Below are positions 2,114 through 61,798 of a DNA stretch of 64,000 nt, in pieces. Location: assembly GCA_021372515.1 (NCBI GenBank), contig JAJFUG010000073.1:25796-89795 (forward strand), read 5' to 3'. Each line of letters begins with the position of its first letter. Position 1 is the first letter of the stretch. The stretch is from a bacterium (GTDB lineage Bacteria > Gemmatimonadota > Glassbacteria > GWA2-58-10). The translations under genes and the position numbers were made by a program. The notes beneath the pieces were generated by a model that saw only the letters and a list, made by a program, of their open reading frames with translations, was not told the origin of the DNA and did not search any database.

Positions 2114-2986
2114 ATGAAAACAGGGTTCGCCGGTCTGGGGCTGATGGGCGCGTCGATGGCCGGCCATCTGGTGCGCGCCGGCCTGGAGGTGGCGGTGTAC
2201 AACCGCACGCGTGAGAAAGCTCTGCCCCTGGAAAAGGCCGGGGCGGTTGTCTGCGACAGCCCGGCCGCGCTGGGCCGGCTCTGCGATGTGGTCATGCTCT
2301 GTGTGAGCGACACGCCGGATGTGCGCCAGGTGGTGCTGGGTGAGGATGGAGTGGCCTCAGGCATGGCCCCCGGCGGGCTGATTGTCGACCACTCTACGAT
2401 CAGTCCCACGGCCAGCCGCGAGATCGCCGCCGAACTGGCCGCACGCGGGATCGGCTTTGTGGACGCCCCGGTGTCGGGCGGCACCAGCGGCGCGGCCGAG
2501 GGCACCCTGGTGACAATGATGGGCGGACGGGACTCTGACATCGCGCGCGCCCGCGAGGTGGTCCGGCATTACACCAGCCGCGCCGTGCATGTGGGCCCGG
2601 TCGGCCACGGCCAGTTGATGAAATGCTGCAATCAGGTGGTGACCGGCCTGCACGTGATCGCCCTGGCCGAGGGGTTCCGGTTCGCCCGCGGCCTGGGCCT
2701 GGATGAGAAAACCGCCTGGGAGACCCTGGACAGCGGCGCGGCCACCAGTTTCATCTGGCGCAAGTGGGGCGGACTGCTCAAAGAGGGCGACCTTCGCCCC
2801 GGGTTCAAGATCGGCCTGCACCTGAAAGACCTGCGCCTGGCCCTTCTGGAGTGCGAGCGCGCCGGGGTGGAGCTGCCCGGACTCAAGCTCACCGAGCATC
2901 AGTTCGAGAAAGCGGTCGAGATGGGATTGGGCGAGCTGGGGGACCAGGCCCTGGTGAAAATCCTCGAACCCGGGGGAAGAGCCTGA
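2114..2986 (+). CDS. NAD(P)-dependent 3-hydroxyisobutyrate dehydrogenase / tartronate-semialdehyde reductase family oxidoreductase
   Basis: It has the N-terminal Rossmann motif GLGLMGxxMAxHL and the 6-phosphogluconate-dehydrogenase-like fold signature typical of the MmsB/GarR family. The RBS AAGGAGAGG lies 6 nt upstream of the ATG. Confidence 0.85.
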   Translation: MKTGFAGLGLMGASMAGHLVRAGLEVAVYNRTREKALPLEKAGAVVCDSPAALGRLCDVVMLCVSDTPDVRQVVLGEDGVASGMAPGGLIVDHSTISPTASREIAAELAARGIGFVDAPVSGGTSGAAEGTLVTMMGGRDSDIARAREVVRHYTSRAVHVGPVGHGQLMKCCNQVVTGLHVIALAEGFRFARGLGLDEKTAWETLDSGAATSFIWRKWGGLLKEGDLRPGFKIGLHLKDLRLALLECERAGVELPGLKLTEHQFEKAVEMGLGELGDQALVKILEPGGRA

Positions 2987-3095
2987 GCGTGGCTTTGCGG
3001 GTGTGGTCAGGATATTGTTCGGACACGTGAACGATATTAGTTTATCTCCGAGCGACTATCATACTCTGACCGCAAATCTCAACCAGAGGCGCACG

Positions 3096-6000
3096 ATGTT
3101 ATTCAAAGCCCCCCTAACCGGCCTGGGCCTGCTGCTTGTCCTGATCGCCTGCAGTTTCTCGCTCCTTAGCGCCCAGGATGAGTGGGGCCAGTTACAGGAG
3201 TTCGAGGACGGCGACCTGTCGCGCTGGAGCGTCACCGGCGGCGCGCTGGCCCTGGACAGTGTCTACGCCACCGAGCGCAAACACGACCTGCGGGTGGAGT
3301 TCCAGGCCGGGGGCGTGCTGAGTGTCGAGCTGGGCGGCCTCTGGCGCATGGAACAGATAATCCGCGAGAAAGCGGGCGATGAGGGAGGCGGCGGCTGGAA
3401 AATCCAGGAGGCGATCTTTGTCGACCTGTACAGTCCGGTCCCGCTCAGCCTGCGCCTCACTTTCCGCGACAGCCTGGGCGGCAGTTGGAGCACCCTGCGC
3501 ACATTGAGCCAGGGCCTCAACCACGTTCAGTACCGGCGCGAGCAGCTGGCCGGGGTGGACTGGCTGGCCCTGCGGCGGGTGGAGTTCAGCCCCGCGGCCG
3601 CAGCCACGCTCTACCTGGACCACCTCCGCACCTGGGAGCACCAGCCCGAGCTGGACAGCCGCGGACGGATGGACATAGTCTACTCCGACTCGGTCCGGAC
3701 TCCGCACGTGGCCTGGCAGCGGCCGGATGCGGCGGGCCCCTTGCGCGGGCTGTTCGTGCCGCGCGCTGGCAGCGGCCGGGTGATGGTGGAGTTGATGCAA
3801 CGCTTCGAGCTGGAGCCGACCACTGTCACCTTCGAGCCGTCGCTGGGCCTGCACCGCTGGGCGTTCGGCGATTTCTACGGCACCCGCGCCCTCGAATACG
3901 ACCATGTCACCGACAAGTTCAGTGTCTCCTACACCGCCCTGACCAGCGAGCTGGAGAGCCCCCGCCGGTTCGAGGTGATCGCCTTGCCCAACCTGCGCTC
4001 CTGGGCCGATACGCCGCCCGAGCTGCGTAAGGTCCTGCTCAAGCGCGTGGCCGAGGGCTGCGGCCTGGTTTTGTTCCAGCCCGTGGCCGGTGGGCCGGCC
4101 CCGGACCTGGAGGAGCTTTCGCCTCTGGCCGGACAGACCCGCCTGGAGCTGTACAGCCCGCGCGCCGCGGACCAGCCCGAGGAGCGTCCGGCCGGCCTCG
4201 CTCCCGGCGGCGGCGCCTGGAAAGCCGACGATCCCGCCCACTACATCACGCGCGGCATCCCGCTGGAGCTGATCCCGGCCGCGGACATCCACCACGTGCG
4301 CTACACCGCAAAGCCGGGAGCCAGAGTGCTGATCTCGGCGGCGGACGGCAGCCCGATCCTGGCCGTGGGCAGCTACGGCAAGGGTCGCGTGGCGGTGTTC
4401 GCCTGGGAGGACCAGGGCATGTTCCCCCGCGTGGACCGTCCCCTGGAAGACAAGAACGGCCTGCCGTACTGGGAGTATCTCTACGCCCTGACCGGACGCA
4501 CCCTGCGCTGGGCCGCCGGGCGGGACGGCGCCGGGGGGTTCGGCGGCGTGGTCCTGGGAAAGGTGACAGGGGAGGGCCCGCTCGGGATTACCGGCGCCCT
4601 AACCTGCGCCCCCGGCGACAGCCTGCGCGTGGAAATCCGCGACCAGGAATACCGGGTGCTGGCCGAACGCAGGTTGCCCGCCTCCAGCGGCCCGCTGGAG
4701 CTGGCTTTCCCGGATCTGCCGTTCTGCACTCGGATGGTCGCCAACCTGTGGCTCACGCGCCGCGGCCGGGTGGTGGATTTCGCCTCCGCCGGGTGCAGCT
4801 TTTTCGGCTGGAACCGGATCGCATCCCTGGCCACCGGCCTGGACACCTACGAGCTGGGAGACACTGTCAGCGGGACAGTGCGCCTGGACCCGCACGGCCA
4901 ACCCGCGCGGGTGGCCCTGGAGCTGAGCGACAACCGTGGCCGCACGCTGGCCGTGGACACGCTGAGCCTCGGTGCCGGGCAGCCTGGCACATTCTCTTTG
5001 CCGACCGCGCTCTGTCTGGCCCGCCGGGCCGTGGTCACCGCGCGGGTGCTGGACGGCAACGGCCGGGCCGTGCATTCGTCCCGCGCGGAGCTGTTCATCG
5101 ACCGGCCCACGCCCTGGGATGACTACGAAGTGATGATGTACCGTTTCATGCCCCAGATCACGGCCGGGGAATGGCCGTTCCTGGACCGCTACATGGAGCG
5201 CCTGGGGGTGACCGCCTGGGCCGCCGTGCCGCCGGAGTTCGCTTTCCGCAGCAACCTGGAGCTTCAGGCCGAGACCCGTCTGGACACCGAGGAATCGCAG
5301 GACGGCGCGGGCGAGGTCCCCTACCGCGAGCAGAAAAAGAACTACGTAGCCACCCATGACAAGAAGTATCTCATCCGCCGGTACTGCCTGCACGACCCGT
5401 CCTACCTCAAGGAGCAGAAAGAGATCGTCCAGCGCCAGGTCAAGCAGTTCAAGCGGTTCAGCCCCTTGAGCTACTACTGCTACGAGGAGCCCTCGCTCAC
5501 GCATTACGGCGATGCGTTCGACCTGTGTTTCGGCCCGCACACCCTGGCCGCGTTCCGCGACTGGCTGAAAGGGCAGTACGGCTCGCTGGCGGCGCTCAAC
5601 GCCCAGTGGGGCGCCGCATTCACCTCCTGGGACGCCGTGACGCCGGATGACACCCCCGGAGCCCAGGCGCGCGGCAATTTCTCCAGTTGGTCCGACCACC
5701 GTATTTTCATGGAGAAGAGCTACGCCGACAACTACGCCTACGTCCGCCGCATGGTGCGCGAGATCGACCCCGAGGGCCGGGTGATGATGACCGGCACCCA
5801 GCGCACGGTGGCACAGAACGGCTACGACTACTACCTGCTCGACCAGACCATCGACCACACCCAGCCCTACGGCGAGCCGGAGCGCCACAAGGCGTTCATG
5901 CGCGCGGGGGGCAAGATCACCGGCTGCACGGGTTACGGCGTGTCGGGTGTCAAGCTGGACTACGAGCTCTGGGGCCGCCTGTTCGCCGGGCACACCGCCG

Positions 6001-7364
6001 GCAGCGCCATTTTCTGGCAGTTCTCGACCCTCGACCCCGACTACCGCCTCTGTAAGAGCGGGGCGGACATGCTGCGCATTTTCGGCGAGCTGCGCCACGG
6101 CGGAGTCGCGCGGCTGCTGACCACGGCGCACTGGACCCCCAGCGAGGTGGTGCTGTTCTGGTCCATGCCCGCGCTGCACGGAAGCTGGATCCAGGACGGC
6201 CGGATCGTGGAGCAGGACGGGGCCCCGAGCGCGGCGTTCGAGCGCTGGGAGTTCAACTACGAGAGCTGGCGCTGGCTGCTGGATGACCTGGGCGTGCCCT
6301 ACCGCGCCATGAGCTGGCAGATGCTGGAGCAGGGCTGGTTGGAGAAATCCGGGGCCAGGGTGCTGGTCCTGCCCGCGACAATCGCCCTTTCGGAAAAGGG
6401 AACCGCCGCGGTGCGGAATTTCGTGCAGGCGGGCGGCGCGGTGATCGCGGATGCCCAGCCGGCGGTGATGGACGGCCATTGCAAGTGGCTGGAGAAGGGC
6501 GGCCTGGATGGGCTGTTTGGCCTGAGCGGACAGCGCGCCAGGCTGATCCCGACAGTGGGGGATTATACGGAGGTGCGCGGCGCTGTGCACGGGCTGGCCG
6601 TGGCGGACAGTGGAGTGCAGCCCGCGGGCGCGAGTCGGGCCGACTACGGTCCGGGTCTGCCGGGCGTGCTCAGGGGTTCGGTCGGGCAGGGGCGGACTTT
6701 CTTCCTCAACGCCTGGCTGGCCGGTTACGGACGGCTCCGTCAGACCGGCGGTGGGGCCGAGGTGCGCCAGGGCCTGGCCGCTCTGCTCAAGGATGCCGGA
6801 TACAAACCGCTCATCGAGTTGCGGCCCTCCGCCGGCGGCGACCTCCAGGCCGTGCGCCTGACCTCCTACAACCTGGGCCAGGGCTACGTGCTGGGCCTGC
6901 TGAAGGACTACCGATCCGCCGACCCGCGCCAGGACCTCGACCTCACGCTGCCCGCGGCGGGCTACCAGTACGATGTCCGCGCCGGGCGCTACCTGGGCTT
7001 CGGCTCCGTGCTGCGCACGGACATCGCCCCGGGCGAGGTGCGGCTCGTGGCCAGCCTGCCCTACCGGGTGAGCGGCCTGGAGCTGAAAGGGCCGCAGACT
7101 GCGAGCCGCGGGCAGGCGGTGGAGTTCGGCGCGACCGTGCTGGCCGCGGAGGGAAAAGAGGCCGGGCCGCACGTGCTGGTGGCGCGCGTGTTCGACCCCT
7201 CGGGCGCGGCGGTGGACTACTACGGGAAGAACCTCAGTGCTCAGAACGGGCAGGCTTCTTTCAGCCTGCCTCTGGCGCTGAGCGATACGCCGGGGCGCTG
7301 GCGGGTGCGGGTGCGGGACGTGGTCAGCGGGGTGAGCGGCCAGTGGGCTTTCCAGGTGCAATGA
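3096..7364 (+). CDS. large secreted multidomain glycoside hydrolase with a GH42-like (beta-galactosidase family) central region
   Basis: Start moved to ATG 3096 (MLFKAPLTGLGLLLVLIACSFSLLSA, a signal peptide). The central region has GH42-like motifs (AFRDWLKGQYGSLAALNAQWGAAFTSWDAV) and a GATase1-like trimerisation-type segment (VLVLPATIALSEKGTAAVRNFVQAGGAVIAD). The N-terminal roughly 650 aa are uncharacterised. Confidence 0.55.
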   Translation: MLFKAPLTGLGLLLVLIACSFSLLSAQDEWGQLQEFEDGDLSRWSVTGGALALDSVYATERKHDLRVEFQAGGVLSVELGGLWRMEQIIREKAGDEGGGGWKIQEAIFVDLYSPVPLSLRLTFRDSLGGSWSTLRTLSQGLNHVQYRREQLAGVDWLALRRVEFSPAAAATLYLDHLRTWEHQPELDSRGRMDIVYSDSVRTPHVAWQRPDAAGPLRGLFVPRAGSGRVMVELMQRFELEPTTVTFEPSLGLHRWAFGDFYGTRALEYDHVTDKFSVSYTALTSELESPRRFEVIALPNLRSWADTPPELRKVLLKRVAEGCGLVLFQPVAGGPAPDLEELSPLAGQTRLELYSPRAADQPEERPAGLAPGGGAWKADDPAHYITRGIPLELIPAADIHHVRYTAKPGARVLISAADGSPILAVGSYGKGRVAVFAWEDQGMFPRVDRPLEDKNGLPYWEYLYALTGRTLRWAAGRDGAGGFGGVVLGKVTGEGPLGITGALTCAPGDSLRVEIRDQEYRVLAERRLPASSGPLELAFPDLPFCTRMVANLWLTRRGRVVDFASAGCSFFGWNRIASLATGLDTYELGDTVSGTVRLDPHGQPARVALELSDNRGRTLAVDTLSLGAGQPGTFSLPTALCLARRAVVTARVLDGNGRAVHSSRAELFIDRPTPWDDYEVMMYRFMPQITAGEWPFLDRYMERLGVTAWAAVPPEFAFRSNLELQAETRLDTEESQDGAGEVPYREQKKNYVATHDKKYLIRRYCLHDPSYLKEQKEIVQRQVKQFKRFSPLSYYCYEEPSLTHYGDAFDLCFGPHTLAAFRDWLKGQYGSLAALNAQWGAAFTSWDAVTPDDTPGAQARGNFSSWSDHRIFMEKSYADNYAYVRRMVREIDPEGRVMMTGTQRTVAQNGYDYYLLDQTIDHTQPYGEPERHKAFMRAGGKITGCTGYGVSGVKLDYELWGRLFAGHTAGSAIFWQFSTLDPDYRLCKSGADMLRIFGELRHGGVARLLTTAHWTPSEVVLFWSMPALHGSWIQDGRIVEQDGAPSAAFERWEFNYESWRWLLDDLGVPYRAMSWQMLEQGWLEKSGARVLVLPATIALSEKGTAAVRNFVQAGGAVIADAQPAVMDGHCKWLEKGGLDGLFGLSGQRARLIPTVGDYTEVRGAVHGLAVADSGVQPAGASRADYGPGLPGVLRGSVGQGRTFFLNAWLAGYGRLRQTGGGAEVRQGLAALLKDAGYKPLIELRPSAGGDLQAVRLTSYNLGQGYVLGLLKDYRSADPRQDLDLTLPAAGYQYDVRAGRYLGFGSVLRTDIAPGEVRLVASLPYRVSGLELKGPQTASRGQAVEFGATVLAAEGKEAGPHVLVARVFDPSGAAVDYYGKNLSAQNGQASFSLPLALSDTPGRWRVRVRDVVSGVSGQWAFQVQ

Positions 7365-8370: not shown

Positions 8371-9486
8371 ATGAGCCAGAAAAGGTCCAGTATCTATTTC
8401 ACCGCCAGCGGTAAAGTTTTCCCGGAAAAAGTCGATTTCCTGGGACAGGCCTACGAGAAGATCGAGGACTTACGCTACGGCACCAACCCGAACCAGGGCG
8501 CGGCTTTCTACCGCCCGGCGGGGGCCGGACTGCTGGTTCTGGGGAGCATGCAGATACTGAAGAGCGGCAAGGGCGGCCTGAGCCAGACCAATCTTGAGGA
8601 CATGCACCACGCGCTGAACATAGTCAAGTATTTCGACCGTCCGGCCGTGGCGGTGATGAAGCACCTCAACCCCTCGGGCGCGGCGGTGCAGTTCCGCGGC
8701 GAGACGCAGGTGGAGGTCTACCGCAAGGCGCGGGATGCCGACAGCCGGGCGGCTTTCGGCTCGGTGGTGGCGTTCAACACCCAGGTCACAGCCGCCGCGG
8801 CCGAGGAGATCATGGGCACCGTGGTCGAGGCGGTGGTGGCCCCGGCTTACGAGAGCGCGGCCCTGGCGGCGTTCGAGGATTACCAGCGTTTCGGCCGCAA
8901 CCGCCACATCCGCGTGGTCAAGGTGGACAACCTGGACAAGCTGCCGCGTTTCGAGGGCGACAACACCGAGGGGCATCTGGAGGTGAAGGTGTTCGGCGAC
9001 GGCTCGCTGGTGCTGGCCGAGCCTTTCCTCAGCTCCATCCGCGGGCCGCAGGACCTCGTGCCGGCAGAGGCCGAGAACAGCGAAGGGCAGAAAATAGTCT
9101 GCGCTACCGCGCCGACCCCGGACCAGATGCAGGACCTGTTGTTCGGCTGGTACGTGAATTTCAACGTGCGCTCCAACGGGGTGATTATCGTGCGCGACGG
9201 CGTGACCCTGGCGGTGGGCACCGGCCAGCAGGATCGCGTGGGCGCGGTGGAGCAGGCCATCGAGAAAGCCGTCACCTACGCCGGGGCCGAGTCATTGCGC
9301 GGCTCGGCGATCTCCAGCGACGGGTTCTTCCCGTTCCGCGACTCCATCGACCGTCTGGCCGAGGCCGGTATCAGCTCGGTGATCCAGCCCGGCGGCAGCC
9401 TGCGCGACTGGGAGGTGGTCGAGGCCTGCAACGAGCACGGCATCGCGATGGTGTTCACCGGGGAGCGCTGTTTCTCGCACCATTGA
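8371..9486 (+). CDS. purH: phosphoribosylaminoimidazolecarboxamide formyltransferase (AICARFT domain only, no IMP cyclohydrolase domain)
   Basis: It has the conserved AICARFT motifs LRYGTNPNQ(G)AAFY, VMKHLNPSGAAV and the C-terminal SDGFFPFRDSIDRLAEAGISSVIQPGGSLRDWEVVEACNEHGIAMVFTGERCFSHH. The 371 aa correspond to the C-terminal transformylase half of bifunctional PurH. Confidence 0.85.
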   Translation: MSQKRSSIYFTASGKVFPEKVDFLGQAYEKIEDLRYGTNPNQGAAFYRPAGAGLLVLGSMQILKSGKGGLSQTNLEDMHHALNIVKYFDRPAVAVMKHLNPSGAAVQFRGETQVEVYRKARDADSRAAFGSVVAFNTQVTAAAAEEIMGTVVEAVVAPAYESAALAAFEDYQRFGRNRHIRVVKVDNLDKLPRFEGDNTEGHLEVKVFGDGSLVLAEPFLSSIRGPQDLVPAEAENSEGQKIVCATAPTPDQMQDLLFGWYVNFNVRSNGVIIVRDGVTLAVGTGQQDRVGAVEQAIEKAVTYAGAESLRGSAISSDGFFPFRDSIDRLAEAGISSVIQPGGSLRDWEVVEACNEHGIAMVFTGERCFSHH

Positions 9487-9564: not shown

Positions 9565-9588
9565 GGGCACGGCACTCCGTGCCCCTAC
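9565..9588 (-). repeat. REP-like element (GTAGGGGCACGGAGTGCCGTGCCC on minus strand)
   Basis: A 5'-GTAG head is followed by an 8-bp GC-rich palindrome. The same stem reappears as the terminator at 56889-56908. Confidence 0.5.
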
Positions 9589-10649: not shown

Positions 10650-12733
10650 GGATGCTGCTCAAACTGGTCAAGGCCGCGTTCTACCTCGCGCTGATCCTGG
10701 CGGTGGCCGCTTTCGTGGCCGGGGTGGTGGTGGTGGTGAGCATGCGGGATGAGATACCCCAGCTTCCCGACCGTCTGGAAAAGCTGGTCCTCAACACCCG
10801 CACCGAGTTCTATTCCGGCTCGGGCAGCCTGATTTCCACGATCGGCGAGAAAAACCGCGTGCCCCTGGAGCGGATCAGCCCCAATTTCATCCAGGCCCTG
10901 CTGACCGCCGAGGATGACGAGTTCTACCTGCACCACGGCATCGACAAGAAAGGCATCCTGCGCGCCCTGCTGCAGAACCTGCGCGCCGGGCGGATCGAGG
11001 GGGGAGCCAGCACCCTGACCCAGCAGCTGGCCCGCAATTTCTTCTTCAGCCTGGAGCAGACCCATATCCGCAAGCTGAAAGAGATCCTGTTAGCCTGCCA
11101 GCTCGAATACATGTTCGACAAGAAAGAGATACTGGAGGCCTACTGCAATAACATGTATTTCGGCAGCGGAGCCTATGGCGTGGAGGCGGCCAGCCGGACC
11201 TATTTCGCCAGCCACGCCGACCAGCTCAGCCTGGGCCAGGCGAGCCTGCTGGTGGCGATCCTCAACGGCCCCAGCCTCTACAGCCCCTACCGTCACCCCG
11301 GGCGCGCCCGTACGCGCCAGCTCTGGATCCTTCAGCGCATGGTCGAGCTGGGTCTGCTCACACCCGAGGCGCGCCTGGCGGCCGAGAAAGAGGAAATCAC
11401 CCTGCGCCGCTACACCGAGGGCGCCGAGCGCAGCAGCTATTTCCTGGACTACGTGCAGGACCGCATCCGCGAGCAGTTCGGCGAGGAGTTCCTGTACTAC
11501 GGCGGGCTGAAAGTGTTCACCACCCTCGACCCGGCCCTGCAGTCGTCGGCGACCAGCGCGGTGCGCGGTGGCCTGCGCCGTCTGGACAGCATGCTCAGCC
11601 TTCCCGAATACGGGACGCGGGGCCAGTCCCCGGTTGATTACCCGCAGGGGGCGCTGGTGGCGGTGGAGACCGGCACCGGGGCGATCCTGGCTCTGGTGGG
11701 CGGGCGCGATTACTATGACAGCCAGTTCAACCGCGCCCTGCACCAGAACCGTCTGCCGGGAAGCTCGTTCAAGCCCTTCGTCTACTACACCGCCATGCGC
11801 GATCTGGGCCTCAGTCCGGCCTCCACCCTGGTCGACAGCGCGGTCACTTTCGTCCTGCCCAGCGGACAGACCTGGAGCCCGGGGAATTTCGAGCAGAATT
11901 TCCTCGGCCGGATGACCCTGAAAAAAGCGCTCACCCTGAGCCGTAACGTGATCTCGGCCGATCTGATCGAGATGGTGGGCCCCGACCGGGTGGTCGAGAC
12001 CGCGCGCCAGTTCGGCATCCAGGCGCCGCTCACGCCCACGCCCGCGCTCAGCCTGGGCGCGAGCGGGGTGAGCCCGCTGGAGATGGCCGGGGCCTACGCC
12101 GTGCTGGCCAATGGTGGCATTTACCACGAGCCTTACGCGATCCGCCGGATCGAGGACTACCGCGGCAACGTGATATACGACCCGGTGCCGCGCGGAAGGG
12201 ATGTGGCCAACCCGCAGGTGGTCTATCAACTGGTGGACATGATGCAGTCGGTCGTGGACCACGGCACCGGTCAGGTGCTGCGCCGCCTGGGGTTCATGCT
12301 CCCGGCCGCCGGCAAGACCGGAACCACCAGCGACTACCGCGACTCCTGGTTCGTCGGGTTCACCCCGGGACTGTCCTGCGCCGCCTGGGTGGGCTACGAT
12401 GACAACCGCGAGATGCGTTTCACCCAGAACGGACGCCGCCTGGGCGTGACCGGCGCGCGCGGTGGAGCGCCGATCTGGGCGCTGTTCATGAACCAGGCCA
12501 CCGCGGGCCGTCAGCGCCAGGAATTCCCGATCCCGCCGGGGATCGAGTTCCTGGAGGTCAACGCCTGGAGCGGCTTGCCAGCGGATGAGAGCACCGCGGC
12601 CGCGGACCGGATCACGGTCCCGCTGCTGCCGGAGCAGATAGAGGCTGTGCGCGGCGCGGCGGCTGGGGCTGATTCGGTCGGCACGGCCGACCAGACCGCC
12701 CCGCCGGCGGCGCTGGACACTCTGGAATTCTGA
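10646..12733 (+). CDS. mrcA: penicillin-binding protein 1A family (bifunctional peptidoglycan glycosyltransferase/transpeptidase)
   Basis: An N-terminal TM anchor is followed by a GT51 transglycosylase domain (EDxxFYxHxGID, GASTLTQQLARN, RKxxE) and a transpeptidase domain (SSFKP, SxN, KTGTT). Confidence 0.9.
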   Translation: MRMLLKLVKAAFYLALILAVAAFVAGVVVVVSMRDEIPQLPDRLEKLVLNTRTEFYSGSGSLISTIGEKNRVPLERISPNFIQALLTAEDDEFYLHHGIDKKGILRALLQNLRAGRIEGGASTLTQQLARNFFFSLEQTHIRKLKEILLACQLEYMFDKKEILEAYCNNMYFGSGAYGVEAASRTYFASHADQLSLGQASLLVAILNGPSLYSPYRHPGRARTRQLWILQRMVELGLLTPEARLAAEKEEITLRRYTEGAERSSYFLDYVQDRIREQFGEEFLYYGGLKVFTTLDPALQSSATSAVRGGLRRLDSMLSLPEYGTRGQSPVDYPQGALVAVETGTGAILALVGGRDYYDSQFNRALHQNRLPGSSFKPFVYYTAMRDLGLSPASTLVDSAVTFVLPSGQTWSPGNFEQNFLGRMTLKKALTLSRNVISADLIEMVGPDRVVETARQFGIQAPLTPTPALSLGASGVSPLEMAGAYAVLANGGIYHEPYAIRRIEDYRGNVIYDPVPRGRDVANPQVVYQLVDMMQSVVDHGTGQVLRRLGFMLPAAGKTGTTSDYRDSWFVGFTPGLSCAAWVGYDDNREMRFTQNGRRLGVTGARGGAPIWALFMNQATAGRQRQEFPIPPGIEFLEVNAWSGLPADESTAAADRITVPLLPEQIEAVRGAAAGADSVGTADQTAPPAALDTLEF

Positions 12734-29688: not shown

Positions 29689-29750
29689 GCGGGGGAAAGA
29701 AGCTACAAATTGCAGGATTGAACAAAATAATTATATAGGATGAGGTGGAA

Positions 29751-29786
29751 AGAGAGGGCGGGCCTCCTGGCCCGCCCTCTCTTTCG
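29751..29786. terminator. strong bidirectional terminator hairpin at the left boundary of the low-GC islet
   Basis: A perfect 14-bp stem AGAGAGGGCGGGCC / GGCCCGCCCTCTCT with loop TCCT is followed by TTTCG. Confidence 0.65.
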
Positions 29787-29798
29787 TGGGCATATATT

Positions 29799-30572
29799 TT
29801 ACTTCGTTATCTCCTGCAGGTATCTTTCGATACGGTCACTGTTAGTTCCAAGACTTGAAAACTGTTTATCGCAAACATCGCTGAAACGAGCCAGCACCTT
29901 CCTGTTGATACATTCCTGATCCTCGAAAACGGCCATACTGCGAAACGGAAGTTGCCATTTTTCAAACTGGAGCATAGAAATAGTAGCATCTCGCGCTTTA
30001 TCGTCACCTGGCACGGCAAATACAAAAAGCGGACGCTCCATACCATTAATTTTACAATCTACACTATACATACCCTGTGTATCGTGTATAGGATCGTGCC
30101 AATCGAAAACTCTGCGGCTCTCCGGAATTTTATTAGTCATAAACGCACGAAAATCTTCCATAAATGTTGATCGTACGCGTTCTTTTAAAAGATAGGAGAT
30201 ATCGGTGATTTTCAACAATGCCTGAGTGAAAGAATAAAGCGCATTACCATATTGATCTTCCTGAATGGCAAGTACTAATTCACCATCTCGATCTTCAACT
30301 TTAAATACGGATAATGCATTGCTGATGATCTTTTGCCTGGTTCCTTTTAGAATGTCTTTCTCATCAATATCATACGTGAGGTGCATATAGGTATGTCCTT
30401 CGTCAGACAAAATCCAACTCGCATTATCTCTTTTGAGAGTAATTGCCAGATGGTCTCCGTCTTCAAACATAAAAGGAGTGAATACTCTAAAACGAGCCTC
30501 ACCCTCCTGCTCCAGGCGAATCTGCTCGCATACTCTATTGCGAAAATCTTGTCTAATTGTTTCGGTATTCAT
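29799..30572 (-). CDS. uncharacterised protein B of islet operon (257 aa; possible PD-(D/E)xK-like motif VPGDD...FEK in C-terminal half)
   Basis: Its ATG lies immediately after the TAG stop of the upstream gene, preceded by GAGGAGG. Composition is AT-rich. No confident family assignment. Confidence 0.55.
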   Translation of the reverse strand: MNTETIRQDFRNRVCEQIRLEQEGEARFRVFTPFMFEDGDHLAITLKRDNASWILSDEGHTYMHLTYDIDEKDILKGTRQKIISNALSVFKVEDRDGELVLAIQEDQYGNALYSFTQALLKITDISYLLKERVRSTFMEDFRAFMTNKIPESRRVFDWHDPIHDTQGMYSVDCKINGMERPLFVFAVPGDDKARDATISMLQFEKWQLPFRSMAVFEDQECINRKVLARFSDVCDKQFSSLGTNSDRIERYLQEITK

Positions 30573-31055
30573 CTATACCTCCTCAAACAAATTCTTTTGA
30601 GGATTTCTTGGAAGGTCAAAATTGCAATCGACAAATAAACATTTTACTGCTGAAGTGAAGTCTGAATATCGTTGTGTTGGCTCAGCATAGGTATCTTCTC
30701 TCGCTCCTAATTCTTGATACCGTTCTGTTGCTGAATGGATATGATAATCATAGAATGTGTCGGACTCTATTCCATTTGTGTGCTCGTGACTTTTCCCGTT
30801 GTATCGTCTCAAACGAAATATCTGATTGCTACCTGCTGGACAATGCGCAAGAATGATTGAGAAATCAAGTGCGTTAAAACTGTTTTGCCTCAAGATAAGA
30901 CGAAATTGATTCCCGTTCTCTCCAAAAAAATCAAATTCTTGTTCCTTGTGACCTCGCTTCTCGCGTAGCTTCATTTTATTTCGGTAATCACTCCCAAGGA
31001 CTTTTTTTTCTGAAATCAATTCTGTAATCTCGGTATCAGAGTATTTTGCAGCCAT
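30573..31055 (-). CDS. uncharacterised protein A of islet operon (160 aa; His-rich segment KSHEHTNG...YDYHIHSATE, possible Rx4-6H HEPN-like motif)
   Basis: The RBS GGAGGAG lies 10 nt upstream of ATG 31055. It is translationally coupled to protein B. Confidence 0.55.
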   Translation of the reverse strand: MAAKYSDTEITELISEKKVLGSDYRNKMKLREKRGHKEQEFDFFGENGNQFRLILRQNSFNALDFSIILAHCPAGSNQIFRLRRYNGKSHEHTNGIESDTFYDYHIHSATERYQELGAREDTYAEPTQRYSDFTSAVKCLFVDCNFDLPRNPQKNLFEEV

Positions 31056-31111
31056 TGTGATTTACTCCTCCAAGAATCACAGTATGTTTGGTTTAGAATT
31101 CTTGAGCCTTT

Positions 31112-33363: not shown

Positions 33364-33718
33364 ATTTAAAGCCTCCGGTAAATAATTATTGAAAATTTCC
33401 TTCGGGCGATTTGCAAAGTGTTATTCTGCTTTGGTTTCGGCCAAAGCAGCAAAGCCAGCGGGGGCCGCGAACTCGTCCCAGCCACGTCAGTCTTTCAACC
33501 TGTAGCGTCACCGAAACGTCGATTCCGCTACCGCGTTGCAGCGGCGGCGCTGGCGCGAATCGCCGCCGAACCGCAGAGCACCTTCAGGCTTGGCCGTTTC
33601 GCCCCCCAACTTCACGCTACCCGTGGTGCAGGCTCAGACAGGCGCGGCCCCCAAAGGCAGAACTGCGGCGGCCTGACAGCCGCAAGCGGGTTTACCCTCC
33701 TGGGATGTCAGGCGGTGT

Positions 33719-33746
33719 CGTAGGGGCGAACCTTGTGTTCGCCCGT
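33719..33746 (+). repeat. REP-like element, 28-bp core CGTAGGGGCGAACCTTGTGTTCGCCCGT (copy 1 of 3 identical)
   Basis: It has a GTAG head and an 8-bp palindrome GGGCGAAC/GTTCGCCC. Identical copies lie at 56589-56616 (minus) and 61771-61798 (plus). Confidence 0.8.
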
Positions 33747-33790
33747 AAAGCTGATATGCAAAAACCTAACCGGACATCCATGCCTCGGTC

Positions 33791-33808
33791 CCCCTTTACG
33801 AAAAGGGG
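33791..33808 (+). repeat. second hairpin repeat family CCCCTTT-N-AAAGGGG(G)AGG (copy 1; copy 2 at 56791-56812)
   Basis: Both copies share CCCCCTTT..AAAGGGGGAGG and lie near the 28-bp REP. Confidence 0.5.
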
Positions 33809-33844
33809 AGGGATAATCGCGCCCCTGAGGTTCATGCGGGGCTT

Positions 33845-34054
33845 TCACCCCCGGCGCACGACCTCGTAGCCGTGCTGGATCAGCCAGTGATGGAACTCGT
33901 AGGTGCTGTGGATACACGCGCTCTGGCAGATCGAGCGGACTTGGTCGTAGCCTGCCGAACCCGCGGCCTGCTGGTCAAGAAGGACCTGCACCGGGCACTG
34001 GATGTCCTTGCAGTACTCCCGGCGCTGGTAGTCGATAAAACCCTCGATTGGCAT
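33845..34054 (-). CDS. small Cys-rich protein (69 aa, Cx4C...Cx3C)
   Basis: It has a strong SD (AAGGAG 7 nt upstream of ATG 34054) and GC-rich coding composition. Function unknown. Confidence 0.55.
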   Translation of the reverse strand: MPIEGFIDYQRREYCKDIQCPVQVLLDQQAAGSAGYDQVRSICQSACIHSTYEFHHWLIQHGYEVVRRG

Positions 34055-34314
34055 GTTGGCGGCTCCTTACGGTTGAACGTCGCCGGACTGCGATTGCCGC
34101 ATTCCGGCAGCGGGTGTTTCAGTCTTGCGCAGCTAAAAGATAGACCCACGCGCCTGGACAGTCAACAGGCATGCCGCCGGGTCGTGCTGTCTTCCGGTAG
34201 CCCCGCAAATGAATTCCTCACCATACGCCAAACCCCGGCTCACTATCCGGAGCTATGTTTATGCATCAGGCTGGATTACGTGTATTCAGACGCCACTGAA
34301 ACCCGGAGGACGGT

Positions 34315-36734: not shown

Positions 36735-36860
36735 GTGTGGAATGAAAAATCTGTCTTGTATCTTGAGATTAATGTGAGCCTCGATGGAAGAAAGGTTCGC
36801 TTTACTGCGTTGTATTTTAAGAGGTTGGAATGAGCATGGTGGGAAATATGCTAATAAATC

Positions 36861-36889
36861 TTGACAAACAAGAGTAAAGGAATTATAAA
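36861..36889 (+). promoter_or_regulatory. consensus sigma70 promoter (TTGACA, 17 nt, TATAAA) inside the islet
   Basis: The -35 TTGACA is at 36861-36866 and the -10 TATAAA at 36884-36889, with an exact 17-bp spacer. Confidence 0.5.
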
Positions 36890-36895
36890 TTAAAC

Positions 36896-36954
36896 AATCC
36901 ACGTATGTGGAGGTGGATGGCTTTGCCATCGGAGCCCGCAAGGGCTCTTTTTTT
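36896..36954 (+). ncRNA. candidate small RNA (about 58 nt, three hairpins, intrinsic terminator GAGCCC-GCAA-GGGCTC + T7)
   Basis: A promoter lies immediately upstream. The hairpins are CCACGTATGTGG, ATGGCTTTGCCAT and the terminator stem at 36932-36947 with T7 at 36948-36954. No ORF is present. It converges on the 3' end of the DUF3800-like gene. Confidence 0.3.
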
Positions 36955-37825
36955 ATCCTATAAATTTTTTCCCAGAACCAGCTATCCTGCCGTTTGATTG
37001 ATAATATTTATTCTGCAATATCGCTACTATCTGTCTTGAAAATACTCCGAGCTCTCTCTCAAATAAATTTTGCTCAGACAAAATTTCACACCAGCTCGGG
37101 TGGGCAAGAAGATCAACTAATTGAAGACCTGCGATGTTATTGCTTTTCTGCTTGACTTTTAATTGTGAGCTTGTGAGGTGTTGTGTAAGATAACCTTTTT
37201 CAAGGTAATGAGTTCCTTTGTTGTAGAGATTGTTAAAGGCTTCTTTTAATTTCTTGTCCTCTTTTCCTCCTCTGGATTCTGCAAGAACATCCCCAGTAGC
37301 TCCTGTACTTCTTAGAAAGAAAATATATCTTTCAAGCATAACTTCCAAACAATAGTGGTAAGGATGATATATCCAAGTGGAATATGTTTCTTTATGTGCT
37401 TTCTTATCTATGCATATGGTTATAACTTTGAAATCCCACCTTCTCAAGCAATTAAGTAGTTCGGAATTGAATTGCTTTTCCGTTTCTGGATCAGAAAGCA
37501 CTGAGAATACATCTCGTTTGTTTACAATGTCTTTGCGATGCAAGATCACTGGATCATCAGGGTGCTGTCCGAAGAATCTTTTCTTTAGGGACTCCATTTC
37601 TGGAAATACGACATCATCAATGTGGTCTAATTTGAAAATGACACCAGTCAAACTTAAGAATCTATGAATGGGATTTGAGGAGCTTCCCAGGTCTGGATTG
37701 CCGACTTCATCGATATACATTCTGTATTTGGCTGCTGAATTCATGATGGTATCAATTCCACTGATGTTTGCTAATATAGAGAACCAAATTATGTCGTTCA
37801 TGTTTTGCTGTAAAACTGAATTCAT
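36953..37825 (-). CDS. DUF3800-like protein (N-terminal MYIDEVGNP motif)
   Basis: It is AT-rich. The motif RMYIDEVG sits near the N-terminus as in DUF3800 family members. The start is ambiguous (ATG 37825 or ATG 37720). It lies 2 nt downstream of the pyk stop. Confidence 0.55.
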   Translation of the reverse strand: MNSVLQQNMNDIIWFSILANISGIDTIMNSAAKYRMYIDEVGNPDLGSSSNPIHRFLSLTGVIFKLDHIDDVVFPEMESLKKRFFGQHPDDPVILHRKDIVNKRDVFSVLSDPETEKQFNSELLNCLRRWDFKVITICIDKKAHKETYSTWIYHPYHYCLEVMLERYIFFLRSTGATGDVLAESRGGKEDKKLKEAFNNLYNKGTHYLEKGYLTQHLTSSQLKVKQKSNNIAGLQLVDLLAHPSWCEILSEQNLFERELGVFSRQIVAILQNKYYQSNGRIAGSGKKFIG

Positions 37826-37827
37826 TG

Positions 37828-38847
37828 CTAAATATAAGCTTTCTCCGCTTCCTTTGTCACCGCGGCGGCAACCCGCACCACCTCGACTGGATAGCGGCCG
37901 CGGGCGGTCTCGCCGGTGAACAGCAGCCAGCCCGTGCCGTCCAGCACCGCGTTGTAGATATCGCTCACCTCGGCCCGGGTGGGCACAGGGTTAACGCACA
38001 TCGATTCGAGCATCTGGGTCGAGGTGATCGACTCCAAGCCCAGGGCGGCGGCCCGGCGCAGCACGTGTTTCTGGGCCGCGGGCACCCGCTCCAGACCGAT
38101 CTCGGCCCCCAGGTCGCCTCGCGCCACCAGGACACCGTCGGCTGCTTCCAGTATCCCCTCCAGGTTGTCTAAGGCCTCGGCGCGCTCGACCTTGGCGATC
38201 AGGCGCAGACTTGCTCCGCGTGCGGCCAGGTAATCCCGTACCTCCCGCACCGAGCCGGCATCCCGCACGAACGAAAGCGCCAGGCTGTCGAACCCGAGGG
38301 CGGCCAGGCAGTCCAGGTCGGCGCGATCCTTGGCGCTCAAGGCAGGGAGCCTGAGGTCGAGCCCCGGGGCGTTCACCCCCTTGCGCCCCTCCAGCGCCCC
38401 GCCGCGGACAATCCGGCAGCGCGCCTCCACGCCCGGTTCCAGTACTTCCAGCTCCACCGCCCCGTCGTTCAGCAGCACCCGTGCGCCAGGCACGAGCGCC
38501 CGGACCAGCTCCGGACAGTCGAGCGTTATCCGTCCGGCGCCGAGCGGCGCTTCGCCCGCGCAGAGGACAGTTTCCCGTCCTGCCTCCAGCCGCACGCCGC
38601 CCTCCGGGGCCGTGGCCGTGCGTGGTCGTGGCCCCTGAAGGTCGGCCAGCAGGCGGACTCGCTGTCCGCTGGCTTTCTCGGCTTGTCTGAGGGGAACGAG
38701 CAGGCGTTCGCATTCGCCGGGGGTAAGATGGGAGAAATTGACCCGCACCCCGCGCATTCCGGACTCGATCATGGCCTCAAGAATGGGCTGGGAGGCGCAG
38801 GACGGTCCCAGGGTGCACATTATTCCGGTGCGCAGCGGTGCGGTCAT
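37828..38847 (-). CDS. pyk: pyruvate kinase lacking the C-terminal (allosteric) domain
   Basis: A and B domains are present (MTAPLRTGIMCTLGP..., NFSHLTPGE, MVARGDLGAEIG). The protein ends at ...VVRVAAAVTKEAEKAYI* after 339 aa, where canonical PKs continue with a roughly 130-aa C domain. The ATG overlaps the pfk stop (ATGA). Confidence 0.8.
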   Translation of the reverse strand: MTAPLRTGIMCTLGPSCASQPILEAMIESGMRGVRVNFSHLTPGECERLLVPLRQAEKASGQRVRLLADLQGPRPRTATAPEGGVRLEAGRETVLCAGEAPLGAGRITLDCPELVRALVPGARVLLNDGAVELEVLEPGVEARCRIVRGGALEGRKGVNAPGLDLRLPALSAKDRADLDCLAALGFDSLALSFVRDAGSVREVRDYLAARGASLRLIAKVERAEALDNLEGILEAADGVLVARGDLGAEIGLERVPAAQKHVLRRAAALGLESITSTQMLESMCVNPVPTRAEVSDIYNAVLDGTGWLLFTGETARGRYPVEVVRVAAAVTKEAEKAYI

Positions 38848-45463: not shown

Positions 45464-45490
45464 GTAGGGGTGGGTTTCAAACCCGCCCCC
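45464..45490 (+). repeat. REP-like element GTAGGGGTGGGTTTCAAACCCGCCCC
   Basis: A GTAG head is followed by an imperfect 10-bp palindrome. Confidence 0.5.
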
Positions 45491-46563: not shown

Positions 46564-46615
46564 GGGGAACGGTCAAGAACTTGTTATGTTCGACCGTAAG
46601 GAGAGAATAGATACC

Positions 46616-46641
46616 GTAGGGGCGGCCCCCCGTGGCCGCCC
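46616..46641 (+). repeat. REP-like element GTAGGGGCGGCCCCCCGTGGCCGCCC
   Basis: A GTAG head is followed by a GC palindrome. It belongs to a three-element cluster. Confidence 0.5.
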
Positions 46642-46650
46642 GGATAAAAA

Positions 46651-46676
46651 GGGCAGGCACAGGGGTCTGCCCCTAC
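46651..46676 (-). repeat. REP-like element (minus strand GTAGGGGCAGACCCCTGTGCCTGCCC)
   Basis: It lies in inverted orientation relative to its neighbours, a BIME-like arrangement. Confidence 0.45.
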
Positions 46677-46745
46677 GCGGACCGACGTCAGGAAGCACGC
46701 CTTTGGGATGAAATGCCCAGCGGTAGAGCCGTGAGGTGTCCATAT

Positions 46746-46771
46746 GTAGGGGAGGGTTTTAAACCCTCCCC
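46746..46771 (+). repeat. REP-like element GTAGGGGAGGGTTTTAAACCCTCCCC
   Basis: A GTAG head is followed by a perfect 10-bp palindrome. Confidence 0.5.
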
Positions 46772-46890
46772 TAAGTTTTTTCGATGGTTTTGAGCCCTGC
46801 GAATAACCGCGCGGAATTCCTGATGGAATAGAGAATCCTGATGGCAAACTGAATTACCGGGGTATCGGAAAGGAAAGACTGAACGAAATC

Positions 46891-55205: not shown

Positions 55206-56549
55206 ATGAGATATACGCCACACACCGAGGCCGATGTCAAGAGGATGCTCGAAAGCCTCGGCCTGAATTCGCTGGATGAGCTTTTCCGTTCCATCCCGGC
55301 CGAGGTCCAGGCCCGCTGCCGTCTGAGCCTGCCCGAGCCCTTGACCGAGATGGAAGTCACCGCCCTGGTCGAGGAGGTGGCCGCCGCCAACTGCGACCCC
55401 TTCGCCACGCTCAGTTTCCTGGGCGGCGGGGCCTGGGACCACTACATCCCGGCCGCCACCTGGCAGCTCCTTTCGCGCTCCGAGCTCTACACCTGCTACA
55501 CGCCCTACCAGGCCGAGGTCAGCCAGGGCACGCTCCAGGCGATCTACGAGTACCAGAGTCTTGTCTGCCGCCTGACCGGCATGGACATCGCCAACGCCAG
55601 CGGCTACGACGGCGGCTCGGTCACGGCGGATGCCGCCCTGATGGCCGCCGCGATCAATGATGAGCGTTCGGTGGTCCTGGTCTCGGACACGGTGAACCCG
55701 GCCTACCGTCAGGTGGTGGAAACCTACAATTCCGGTGGGCGCTGCACTGTGCGCCGGGTGCCGTCGAAGAACGGCGCCACCGACCCTGAGGCCCTGGCCG
55801 CGGCCCTGGATGAGGACACGGTCTGCGTTATCGTGCAGAGCCCCAATTTCCTGGGAGCGCTGGAGGACACCGCAGCCCTCTGCGCCCTGGCGAAAGAAAA
55901 GGGTGCGCTCTCGGTGGTGGTCTGCGACCCGGTGGCCCTGGCCCTGACCACCTCGCCCGGCGAGGCGGGGGCCGATATCGCAGTGGGCGAGGGCCAGCCC
56001 TTGGGCGTGCCGCTCAGTTTCGGCGGACCGTATCTGGGCTTTTTCGCCACGCGCGAGGGCTACAAACGCCAGCTCCCGGGCCGTCTGGTCGGCATGACCG
56101 AGGACGTGAACGGCAAGCCGGGCTACGTGCTCACCCTTCAGACCCGCGAGCAGCATATCAAGCGCGAGCGCGCCACCAGCAACATCTGCACCAACCAGGC
56201 CCTTCTGGCCCTGGCCGCCACGATCCACCTGACCCTGCTGGGCCGCGAGGGCCTGACCGAGGCGGCGAACCTGAGCCTGCAGAAAGCCCACTATCTGGCC
56301 GAGCGTATCGCGGCCCTGCCCGGCTGGAGCCTGGCGTACCCGGAGCAGCCGTTCTTCCGCGAGTTTGTGCTGCGGCCGCCCAAGCCGCCGCGCGAGGTGA
56401 TCGAGAAAGCCCTGGCGCGCGGGTTCCTGGCCGGGATCGACCTGGGGCGTCTGGACAGTCAGTGGGAGGGCCTGCTTCTCACCGCGGTGACAGAGAAGCG
56501 GACAAGAAAGCAGATGGACAGCTTAGTGGAAACCCTGGCCTCGCTGTGA
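55206..56549 (+). CDS. gcvPA: glycine dehydrogenase (decarboxylating) subunit 1
   Basis: The sequence is typical of the P-protein N-terminal subunit (TCYTPYQAEVSQGTLQAIYEYQ). Length is 447 aa. Confidence 0.9.
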   Translation: MRYTPHTEADVKRMLESLGLNSLDELFRSIPAEVQARCRLSLPEPLTEMEVTALVEEVAAANCDPFATLSFLGGGAWDHYIPAATWQLLSRSELYTCYTPYQAEVSQGTLQAIYEYQSLVCRLTGMDIANASGYDGGSVTADAALMAAAINDERSVVLVSDTVNPAYRQVVETYNSGGRCTVRRVPSKNGATDPEALAAALDEDTVCVIVQSPNFLGALEDTAALCALAKEKGALSVVVCDPVALALTTSPGEAGADIAVGEGQPLGVPLSFGGPYLGFFATREGYKRQLPGRLVGMTEDVNGKPGYVLTLQTREQHIKRERATSNICTNQALLALAATIHLTLLGREGLTEAANLSLQKAHYLAERIAALPGWSLAYPEQPFFREFVLRPPKPPREVIEKALARGFLAGIDLGRLDSQWEGLLLTAVTEKRTRKQMDSLVETLASL

Positions 56550-56568
56550 AGCGGGGCCTTTTGGTTTT
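56537..56568 (+). terminator. Rho-independent terminator after gcvPA
   Basis: The stem GGCCTCGC-tgtgaa-GCGGGGCC is followed by TTTTGGTTTT. Confidence 0.6.
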
Positions 56569-56588: not shown

Positions 56589-56616
56589 ACGGGCGAACAC
56601 AAGGTTCGCCCCTACG
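56589..56616 (-). repeat. REP-like element, 28-bp core (copy 2, inverted)
   Basis: It is the exact reverse complement of the 33719-33746 copy. Confidence 0.8.
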
Positions 56617-56880
56617 GTAGGCCCGCGCTGCCTGCGACTCCTGGAATCCGCTTTGATTCTCGATCCCCGGCGTAGGGGGGGCCGGGGGGATTTAATCAGA
56701 CAGTCCGTTTTACCACCTCTTTCGCGATATCCTCCCGCCAGACAAGGCAGTGGAAAGAAAGGATTAGATAATATCAAATCTCCCCTCAATCCCCCTTTTT
56801 CAAAGGGGGAGGCAGAGACTGCCCCTTCCATACCTCATGCAGTCAGACCCAATCCGGGCCTCCCGTGATTCTGATGTCAA

Positions 56881-56912
56881 AAAGAAAAGGGCACGGCAGG
56901 CCGTGCCCTTAC
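56881..56912 (-). terminator. Rho-independent terminator of accA (REP-related stem GGGCACGG/CCGTGCCC with GTAA head)
   Basis: On the minus strand AAGGGCACGGCCTGCCGTGCCC is followed by TTTTCTTTTT. Confidence 0.75.
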
Positions 56913-61616: not shown

Positions 61617-61770
61617 AAGCCTGGCTGGCGCGGCTCGTTGGAAGCGTTGGCTGCACGTATGATTTGGATGGCAGTATCAGTTTTCAATGCGGGGCAAGGC
61701 GCGCCGTGCCCCTGTGCTGGCCGTCCTCGTTGGCGATGGTGGGTGTCAGCCACGGATGCCCTGGGCCTGC

Positions 61771-61798
61771 CGTAGGGGCGAACCTTGTGTTCGCCCGT
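61771..61798 (+). repeat. REP-like element, 28-bp core (copy 3)
   Basis: It is identical to the copies at 33719 and 56589(rc). The left flank GGGCCTGC is shared with the 56589 copy. Confidence 0.8.

Follow-up and report, generated by a model that had tools for sequence, protein, structure and literature searches.

The REP/BIME elements of E. coli with RayT (YafM) and the REPIN-RAYT systems of Pseudomonas (Nunvar 2010; Bertels & Rainey 2011; Messing 2012) resemble the locus described here in combining a GTAG with a palindrome, in being extragenic, in occurring as inverted pairs, if only incompletely so here, and in differing by presence or absence between relatives. In these systems a single-copy domesticated Y1 transposase is flanked by its own REPs. 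Their RAYTs belong to subclasses 2.2 and 2.5 (Groups 2 and 3) and not to 2.4, and their REPs are species-specific with hundreds of copies per genome, whereas the repeat described here is common to phyla. In Quentin et al. (2018, BMC Genomics 19:475, PMC6006769), the TnpA_REP proteins of subclass 2.4 are characterised by the motifs NH[IFV]H, WQ and YIxNNP, by a distribution over Cyanobacteria, Bacteroidetes and scattered phyla, and by REPs of either a long type, whose stem base has three G-C pairs, or a 'double foot' type; unique to this subclass are REPs placed in frame within tnpA_REP, between HuH and Y. Subclass 2.4 equals RAYT Group 4, which Bertels et al. (2017) record from 61 species in 17 classes, with flanking 16-mers of low abundance (~14 per replicon).

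The wider GTAG superfamily, as set out by Di Nocera et al. (2013), comprises 24 families; it shows GYAG/GTRG as head variants, forms HH/TT dimers and has tandem clusters into which flanking DNA is drawn. Its terminal GTAG, its head variants, its stems of 6-13 bp and the G-T pairs within them recur here, as do dimers and intragenic copies, and its tandem clusters have a counterpart in the array in L175 described below. The subterminal hairpins of IS200/IS605 elements (IS608, ISDra2) are also alike, as single-stranded DNA hairpins for an HUH-Y1 enzyme with an adjacent guide/target tetranucleotide. The present repeat differs from them in its 28-bp, non-autonomous unit, with no transposase or tnpB between paired ends, and the enzymes linked to it carry the class 2 signature Y...NP, as opposed to the Y...Q of class 1.1.

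A scan of the window, by which we mean the whole 64-kb stretch of DNA analysed, located the 28-mer CGTAGGGGCGAACCTTGTGTTCGCCCGT exactly at 33719-33746 (+), 56589-56616 (-) and 61771-61798 (+). The initial annotation had reported three intergenic copies with 100 % identity, and both points were confirmed; 100 dinucleotide-preserving shuffles of the window gave a chance expectation of 0 copies, and all three copies, like their relatives in the window, lie between ORFs with coding-like GC3. The window held no further match to the 28-mer with three or fewer mismatches, and no diverged copy or intermediate of its 25-nt core with up to eight mismatches allowed. The copies are spaced 5-23 kb apart in both orientations, a modest density for 64 kb. 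As single-stranded DNA, the 28-mer is predicted to fold (-9.8 kcal/mol, z = -5.3) into an 8-bp G+C stem, GGGCGAAC/GTTCGCCC, with the 5-nt loop CTTGT; the stem base consists of three G-C pairs (GGG/CCC), and the 5' GTAG head lies unpaired at the foot of the predicted hairpin. Since the three copies have flanks that cannot be aligned with one another, the repeat unit is about 28 bp, and a larger mobile unit (MITE) around it is ruled out on the same ground; copies 2 and 3 have 36 bp in common, i.e. eight bases beyond the 28. An Rfam scan of the whole window returned no family at gathering score. The copies and the elements paired with them are:

33719-33746 (+): REP copy 1, C-GTAG-GGGCGAAC-cttgt-GTTCGCCC-GT, an exact match with fold, between a small minus-strand ORF (~33846-34055) on one side and the start of a deoC-like gene (33363) on the other
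56589-56616 (-): REP copy 2, past the gcvPA terminator (56537-56558), with the gcvPA stop 40 bp upstream of it
56617-56689 (+): a 56-nt spacer and a truncated second REP head, GTAGGGGGGG, at 56672
61691-61715 (-): degenerate inverted partner of copy 3, ACAG-GGGCACGG-cgcg-CCttGCCC, with a weak fold
61771-61798 (+): REP copy 3, in the interval between a 355-aa gene (end 61616) and a DUF362 gene (start 61862)

Copy 1 is a singleton, and copies 2 and 3 both form heads-inward pairs in which the partner is truncated or degenerate. The partner of copy 3 points its head toward that copy from 55 nt away, and its GGGCACGG stem immediately adjoins the 28-mer in L148, L157 and L178. Copy 2 and the truncated head at 56672 make up a heads-inward dimer with 56 nt between them. 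Only copy 2 has a REP-spacer-REP block (~70 nt) in common with a locus in L210, where the block at 12050-12125 is ~80% identical, and REP-spacer-REP dimers can therefore also be the unit. The right end of the block at 56617-56689 runs into sequence homologous to L208.

The same hairpin is found far beyond this lineage. Scanning one genome per species for GTAGGGGCGAAC-N3-8-GTTCGCCC gave at least 120 loci in at least seven phyla, with a locus G+C from 25% to 68%; hosts among the matches listed include Cyanobacteria, Clostridia, Bacteroidota, Chloroflexota, Desulfobacterota, Deinococcota, Armatimonadota, Planctomycetota, Gammaproteobacteria and others. The loops of the 158 matches listed are far from random (TGT in 21, CTTGT in 16, GGCC in 15, CTATGT in 11), and the cases with a GGCC loop are mostly perfect 'double-foot' palindromes GTAG...CTAC, a form that occurs in L013, L022, L042, L060, L065 and L075. 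Metagenome data contain the exact 28-mer in 79 contigs (35-69% G+C) whose flanks are unrelated, while by our own arithmetic ~10^-5 chance occurrences are expected in the ~10^12 bases concerned. No conserved insertion target was visible beside the 28-mer in 86 metagenomic copies. When viral contigs were scanned for the hairpin without its head, GTAG stood directly 5' of it in 6/6 matches (~4 independent), in all six on the strand with the CTTGT loop, which indicates that the head is part of the element. Together, the head, the non-random loops and the chance estimate argue for a specific entity common to phyla and not a random G+C-rich hairpin. The accessible portions of Quentin 2018 and Bertels 2017 contain no statement that one 28-mer is exactly identical across phyla, and a full-text literature search with the 28-mer string and its peptides (GEHKVRPY, GRTHRFAPT etc.) found no paper.

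These data also bear on whether the copies might be chance or convergent G+C-rich hairpins of a 64% G+C genome, or parts of a CRISPR-like or other array. The window does contain 56 hairpins with a stem of at least 7 bp, but the shuffles gave an expectation of zero for the 28-mer, its loop and unpaired bases are identical between copies, and the GTAG is obligatory. A CRISPR array consists of regular direct repeats with unique spacers, whereas the copies in the window are dispersed in both orientations, the spacers of L175 are identical and Rfam gave no match. We regard such an origin as extremely improbable and as refuted by the shuffles, the obligatory head and the spacers of L175. In L175 itself, a 58-bp unit made up of the 28-mer and a constant 30 bp is repeated 10.5 times in tandem at 2901-3509. 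It shows six exact repeats at a spacing of 58/116 bp, and an inverted REP with a GAAT stem comes after the array. This locus was ruled out as a CRISPR array because its 30-bp 'spacers' are all the same, which points to tandem duplication of a REP with its flank.

That the window holds no RAYT gene, as annotated initially, was borne out by a six-frame search with E. coli RayT and a subclass 2.4 RAYT profile, which found neither a gene nor a fragment in the 64 kb. E. coli RayT (NC_000913) served as the first probe and a small profile built from the first matches as the second; the former alone is too distant a probe, with E = 3e-8 to 2e-4 against REP-linked RAYTs. Elsewhere, ~1.3 Mb of DNA selected solely for holding the REP contained seven RAYT-like ORFs (in L006, L028, L039, L060, L075, L167 and L181), each with the REP within it or at its end. 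The REP is read there as VGAN..., GEHKGSPL, GRTMCAPT etc., with the REP peptides placed between the HuH motif (MPNHIH) and WQRNYYEHIIR / YIxNNP. The RAYT-like proteins, including that of L167, exceed the cut-off of Pfam Y1_Tnp; among NCBIfam models they match REP_Tyr_transpos best, at scores below its equivalog cut-off. In-frame REP copies occur in L006, L028, L039, L060, L075, L167, L205 and L207.

A REP identical to that of the window both flanks and sits inside Y1/RAYT genes in L207, L167 and L205. The RAYT of L167 has an internal GEHKVRPY, which is the window REP read on the reverse strand (RRGEPCVRP is the forward frame), with more REP copies directly downstream. A homologue search with this protein found at least 8,000 sequences, of which the best 120 were inspected; many of its homologues are named 'REP element-mobilizing transposase RayT'. 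Among these best 120, GEHKVRPY is present in 26 and RRGEPCVRP in 10, and of the 113 in which the motifs are recognisable, 97 carry REP-like peptides in the interval from HuH to Y. A textbook REPtron is seen in L207, whose RAYT gene (6176-6826) has inverted cGTAGGGGCGAACcttgtGTTCGCCC pairs upstream, inside and downstream, and more pairs nearby. These are clean symmetric REPINs, whereas the copies in the window are singletons or have degenerate partners only.

The earlier interpretation of a GTAG followed by a palindrome as a RAYT-type REP is thus supported both by the anatomy of the element and by the identical REP at or in RAYT genes elsewhere. The 28-mer is of the type of REPs that go with the HUH-Y1 RAYT/TnpA_REP subclass 2.4 (Bertels Group 4). 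Compared with this subclass as presented in Quentin 2018, the 28-mer is alike in its 5' GTAG, its three-G-C-pair stem base and its patchy spread over many phyla, and the REP-linked RAYTs found here are alike in their motifs, in-frame REPs and double-foot variants. The window differs from described subclass 2.4 systems in showing REPs only, without a RAYT, and in its host, which is an uncultured lineage.

Two RAYT neighbourhoods contain other gene systems. In L205 (10001-19582) and L206, a RAYT with an internal REP pair lies directly upstream of a complete type I-E cas operon (cas3, cse1, cse2, cas7, cas5, cas6e, cas1, cas2), a proximity that is probably coincidental. At 1200-2850 of L167, a RAYT fragment carrying two exact REP copies adjoins a gene that by eye resembles a type I restriction-modification specificity (HsdS-like) gene and lies downstream of the intact RAYT.

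Contigs of close relatives, reached through cluster members at ≥90% identity, comprised L208, L212 and L214 (one JGI sample) together with L209/L210. Jointly they cover the window almost completely in collinear order, at a nucleotide identity of 87-95%, falling to 82% over the radical-SAM gene at 45.0-46.6 kb. These ~90% relatives have neither any of the three 28-mers nor the 46.6-kb REP cluster, i.e. the elements show the presence/absence at orthologous sites by which we judged mobility. Around copy 1, the 398 bp of 33385-33782 are matched by no more than 89 bp in L214 (~90%), which has no 28-mer at this site but a GCAG-headed GGGCAC-type hairpin instead. The orthologous site of copy 2 bears a decayed older REP in L208 and GTAGGGGCGCGGCTTGCTGAGCCCGT in L122 (83% GcvPA identity), and no REP in L124/L125 (76% GcvPA identity). 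The intergenic region of copy 3 measures 244 bp as against 34 bp in L208, where the REP-bearing segment is missing, and 46569-46890 (322 bp, with the elements at 46616, 46651 and 46746) is represented by only 41 bp in L209/L210. The GcvPA of the window is 100% identical to MCE5271195.1; its next homologues are at 83% and 76%, and those beyond are ~67% identical and named Glassbacteria or Gemmatimonadota.

As the collinear ~90% relatives are without the 28-mers, we conclude that the three copies were gained after that split, and their restriction to the lineage of the window explains their perfect identity. These sequence comparisons suggest that REPs turn over rapidly and that each of the three 28-mers is confined to the lineage of the window. 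Where the window has the 28-mer, the relative shows a different REP-like hairpin at two of the three sites. This suggests that new copies were inserted beside existing REPs or replaced them, either of which fits; replacement may have proceeded by recombination or gene conversion instead of de novo insertion, which is compatible with the other hairpins at these two sites. A loss of the REP system in the relative was ruled out, since L214 and L208 carry canonical GTAG REPs with other stems; L210 carries REPs of the GGGCACGG type. Taking this evidence together, we consider it probable that the 28-mers are RAYT-type GTAG REPs that were dispersed recently. Points that count against this reading are the lack of a RAYT in the 64-kb window, the modest density of copies, their missing or degenerate partners and the low abundance of the 16-mers that flank Group 4 RAYTs.

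REP-like hairpins with GCAG heads occur at orthologous sites in L212 (11191-11218) and L214 (~9070-9094). Such heads could represent the GYAG head variant (Di Nocera et al.) rather than simple decay.

Several other features of the window emerged from the same comparison. A second hairpin motif, (T)CCCCCTTT-N3-4-AAAGGGGGAGG, is present twice in the window against an expectation of 0.01 (33786-33822 and 56788-56826), each copy ~50-200 bp from a 28-mer, with the hairpins:

33791-33808: CCCCTTTacgaAAAGGGG
56792-56808: CCCCTTTttcAAAGGGG

Unlike the REPs, this motif is kept at both orthologous sites (L214, L208). The Logan contigs L122, L123 and L125 break at it, which suggests a multi-copy repeat in the lineage. 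A 1.4-kb island of low G+C at 29690-31110 contains the minus-strand ORFs 29799-30572 (DUF1828) and 30573-31055 (no Pfam match); at its site L214 has a 248-bp intergenic region with an inverted GTAG REP pair (GGGCACGC and GGGCGAGAC stems), and the island resembles foreign DNA inserted at a site of REPs. A second low-G+C insertion at 36741-37837 (~1.1 kb vs 20 bp in L214) includes a DUF3800 ORF at 36953-37825 (minus). An apparent small ORF of ~69 aa at 33846-34055 (-), MPIEGFIDYQRREYCKD..., was missed by the 100-aa ORF list; its 3' end is closely alignable with that of an 86-aa gene in the same place in L214.

Besides the 28-mer, six relatives in the window had been listed initially. They are:

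9565-9588 (-): REP of the GGGCACGG stem type, GTAG-GGGCACGG-agtg-CCGTGCCC, a clear hairpin
45464-45488 (+): hairpin downstream of a RidA-like gene, GTAG-GGGTGGGTT-tca-AACCCGCCC, clear
46616-46641 (+): REP of the GGGCGGCC stem type, GTAG-GGGCGGCC-ccccgt-GGCCGCCC, a clear hairpin
46651-46676 (-): degenerate REP, GTAG-GGGCAG...CTGCCC, with a clean stem of only 6 bp
46746-46773 (+): GTAG hairpin, GTAG-GGGAGGGTT-tta-AACCCTCCC-CTA, clear
56887-56912 (-): accA terminator hairpin, GTAA-GGGCACGGC-ct-GCCGTGCCC-TTTTCTTTTT

Those at 9565, 46616, 46746 and 45464 are real GTAG hairpins, whereas that at 46651 is degenerate and that at 56887 is headed by GTAA. The view that all belong to one family needs qualification: most are GTAG-headed intergenic hairpins, but they represent several stem types and not a single one. 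Beside the three exact copies of the 28-mer, the window has about 7 related hairpins. The elements at 46616 (+) and 46651 (-) form an inverted, near-adjacent pair. The element at 46746-46773 (+), a near 'double-foot' palindrome (G)TAGGGGAGGGTT-tta-AACCCTCCCCTA with a T-run after it, is both REP-like and terminator-like. In L212 the orthologous place of 9565-9588 holds a degenerate version with a GCAG head. The hairpin at 45464-45488 is kept in L209/L210, where its head is GAAA and not GTAG, and it is probably an old REP or a terminator-like hairpin. The L208 orthologue of the accA hairpin (~91% relative) reads GTAG-GGGCACGGC-ag-GCCGTGCCC-TTTT, and this canonical head marks 56887-56912 as a member of the REP family with one head substitution. 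GTAGGGG occurs at 13 sites on both strands of the window, eight of them in the ~12% intergenic share as estimated from a rough gene map (binomial p = 3e-5); a ninth, at 45464, fell under coding sequence only through a spurious antisense ORF there. The other GTAG hairpins of the window are presumably older or sister REP types of the same superfamily, and one of these now appears to act as the terminator of accA.

The initial annotation further proposed that several of the elements double as terminators. This applies to 56887-56912 (-) and 46746-46773 (+), the only ones with a proper T-run, but not to the others and not clearly to the 28-mer, which is not directly followed by a T-run on the same strand as an intrinsic terminator would be: a T-run is missing at copies 1 and 3 and weak at copy 2 (GTTTACTTTT). 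Rho-independent terminators are likewise G+C hairpins downstream of genes, like the two relatives with T-runs, but the 28-mer differs from them in its conserved unpaired GTAG head and in lying in either orientation to neighbouring genes. The three copies might nevertheless be hairpins with a host function (terminators, mRNA-stabilising 3' hairpins or protein-binding sites), their identity reflecting constraint and not mobility. The two terminator-like relatives, the conservation of the accA hairpin in L208 and the known influence of REPs on mRNA decay and termination in E. coli fit such a role. It is contradicted by the lack of a T-run at copies 1 and 3, and by the position of copy 2 behind a separate gcvPA terminator (56537-56558) that is conserved in all relatives. 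The 28-mer is moreover missing at all three sites of the relatives though the flanking genes are conserved, and constraint does not account for its occurrence within RAYT genes and, across many phyla, in contexts that are unrelated. We thus deem an origin through host function very unlikely; secondary co-option is compatible with these observations.

Returning to the 28-mer as a RAYT-type REP, its dispersal can be pictured by analogy with E. coli RayT and IS200/IS605 elements. The element would fold into the 8-bp hairpin on single-stranded DNA, a RAYT would recognise this hairpin together with the unpaired 5' GTAG, and the enzyme would then cleave and rejoin the strand. REP copies, single or as inverted pairs, would in this way be seeded at new intergenic sites, often beside existing hairpins. 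Work attributed to Ton-Hoang (in 2012) on E. coli RayT and IS200/IS605 reportedly lies behind the recognition of hairpin and GTAG, the cleavage and the rejoining. E. coli RayT also provides the basis for these steps on single-stranded DNA in Messing 2012, and REP insertion mediated by a RAYT of subclass 2.4 would be analogous to it.

The cognate RAYT is presumably encoded, now or until recently, elsewhere in the source genome. The copies could also be orphans, that is, genuine GTAG REPs in a genome without a functional cognate RAYT which merely drift there, stemming from past activity, from a RAYT that has meanwhile disappeared or, by way of recombination, from foreign DNA. The 64-kb window is without a RAYT, REPtrons are missing from some REP-bearing strains according to Di Nocera 2013, and the other REP-like hairpins of the window and of the relative look decayed. 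Yet the three copies are identical over all 28 nt, unpaired positions included, and all are absent from the ~90% identical relative; dispersal later than that split needs an enzyme active at that time. Orphan REPs are accordingly an unlikely explanation, and we think it fairly likely that an intact cognate RAYT is present in the source genome today.

As a REP family, the repeat is ordinary and belongs to an already recognised class; its identity across phyla is the only unusual point and a modest curiosity, and current understanding is not overturned. For annotation, the hairpins of the window are to be treated as REPs and not as terminators or unknown motifs, and their presence predicts a subclass 2.4 RAYT in an uncultured lineage. 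The window and its ~90% relative provide a clean natural case of recent REP gain at defined sites, and the spread of the 28-mer together with the in-frame copies in RAYT genes offers a tractable system for the co-transfer of REP and RAYT and for the fixity of REP sequences. More tentatively, and with some doubt on our part, the REP may be pan-bacterial: it is carried in its own RAYT as an in-frame intragenic inverted pair (RRGEPCVRP ... GEHKVRPY), and horizontal transfer of this one gene would bring along the enzyme together with a master copy of the substrate, which could seed identical REPs across phyla, the window representing an early stage of such seeding. The identity of the 28-mer between phyla would then probably result from the REP travelling inside its own transposase gene. 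If this is true, REP and RAYT of subclass 2.4 would be horizontally spreading two-part elements, in contrast to the vertically inherited, species-specific pairs of Pseudomonas and E. coli.
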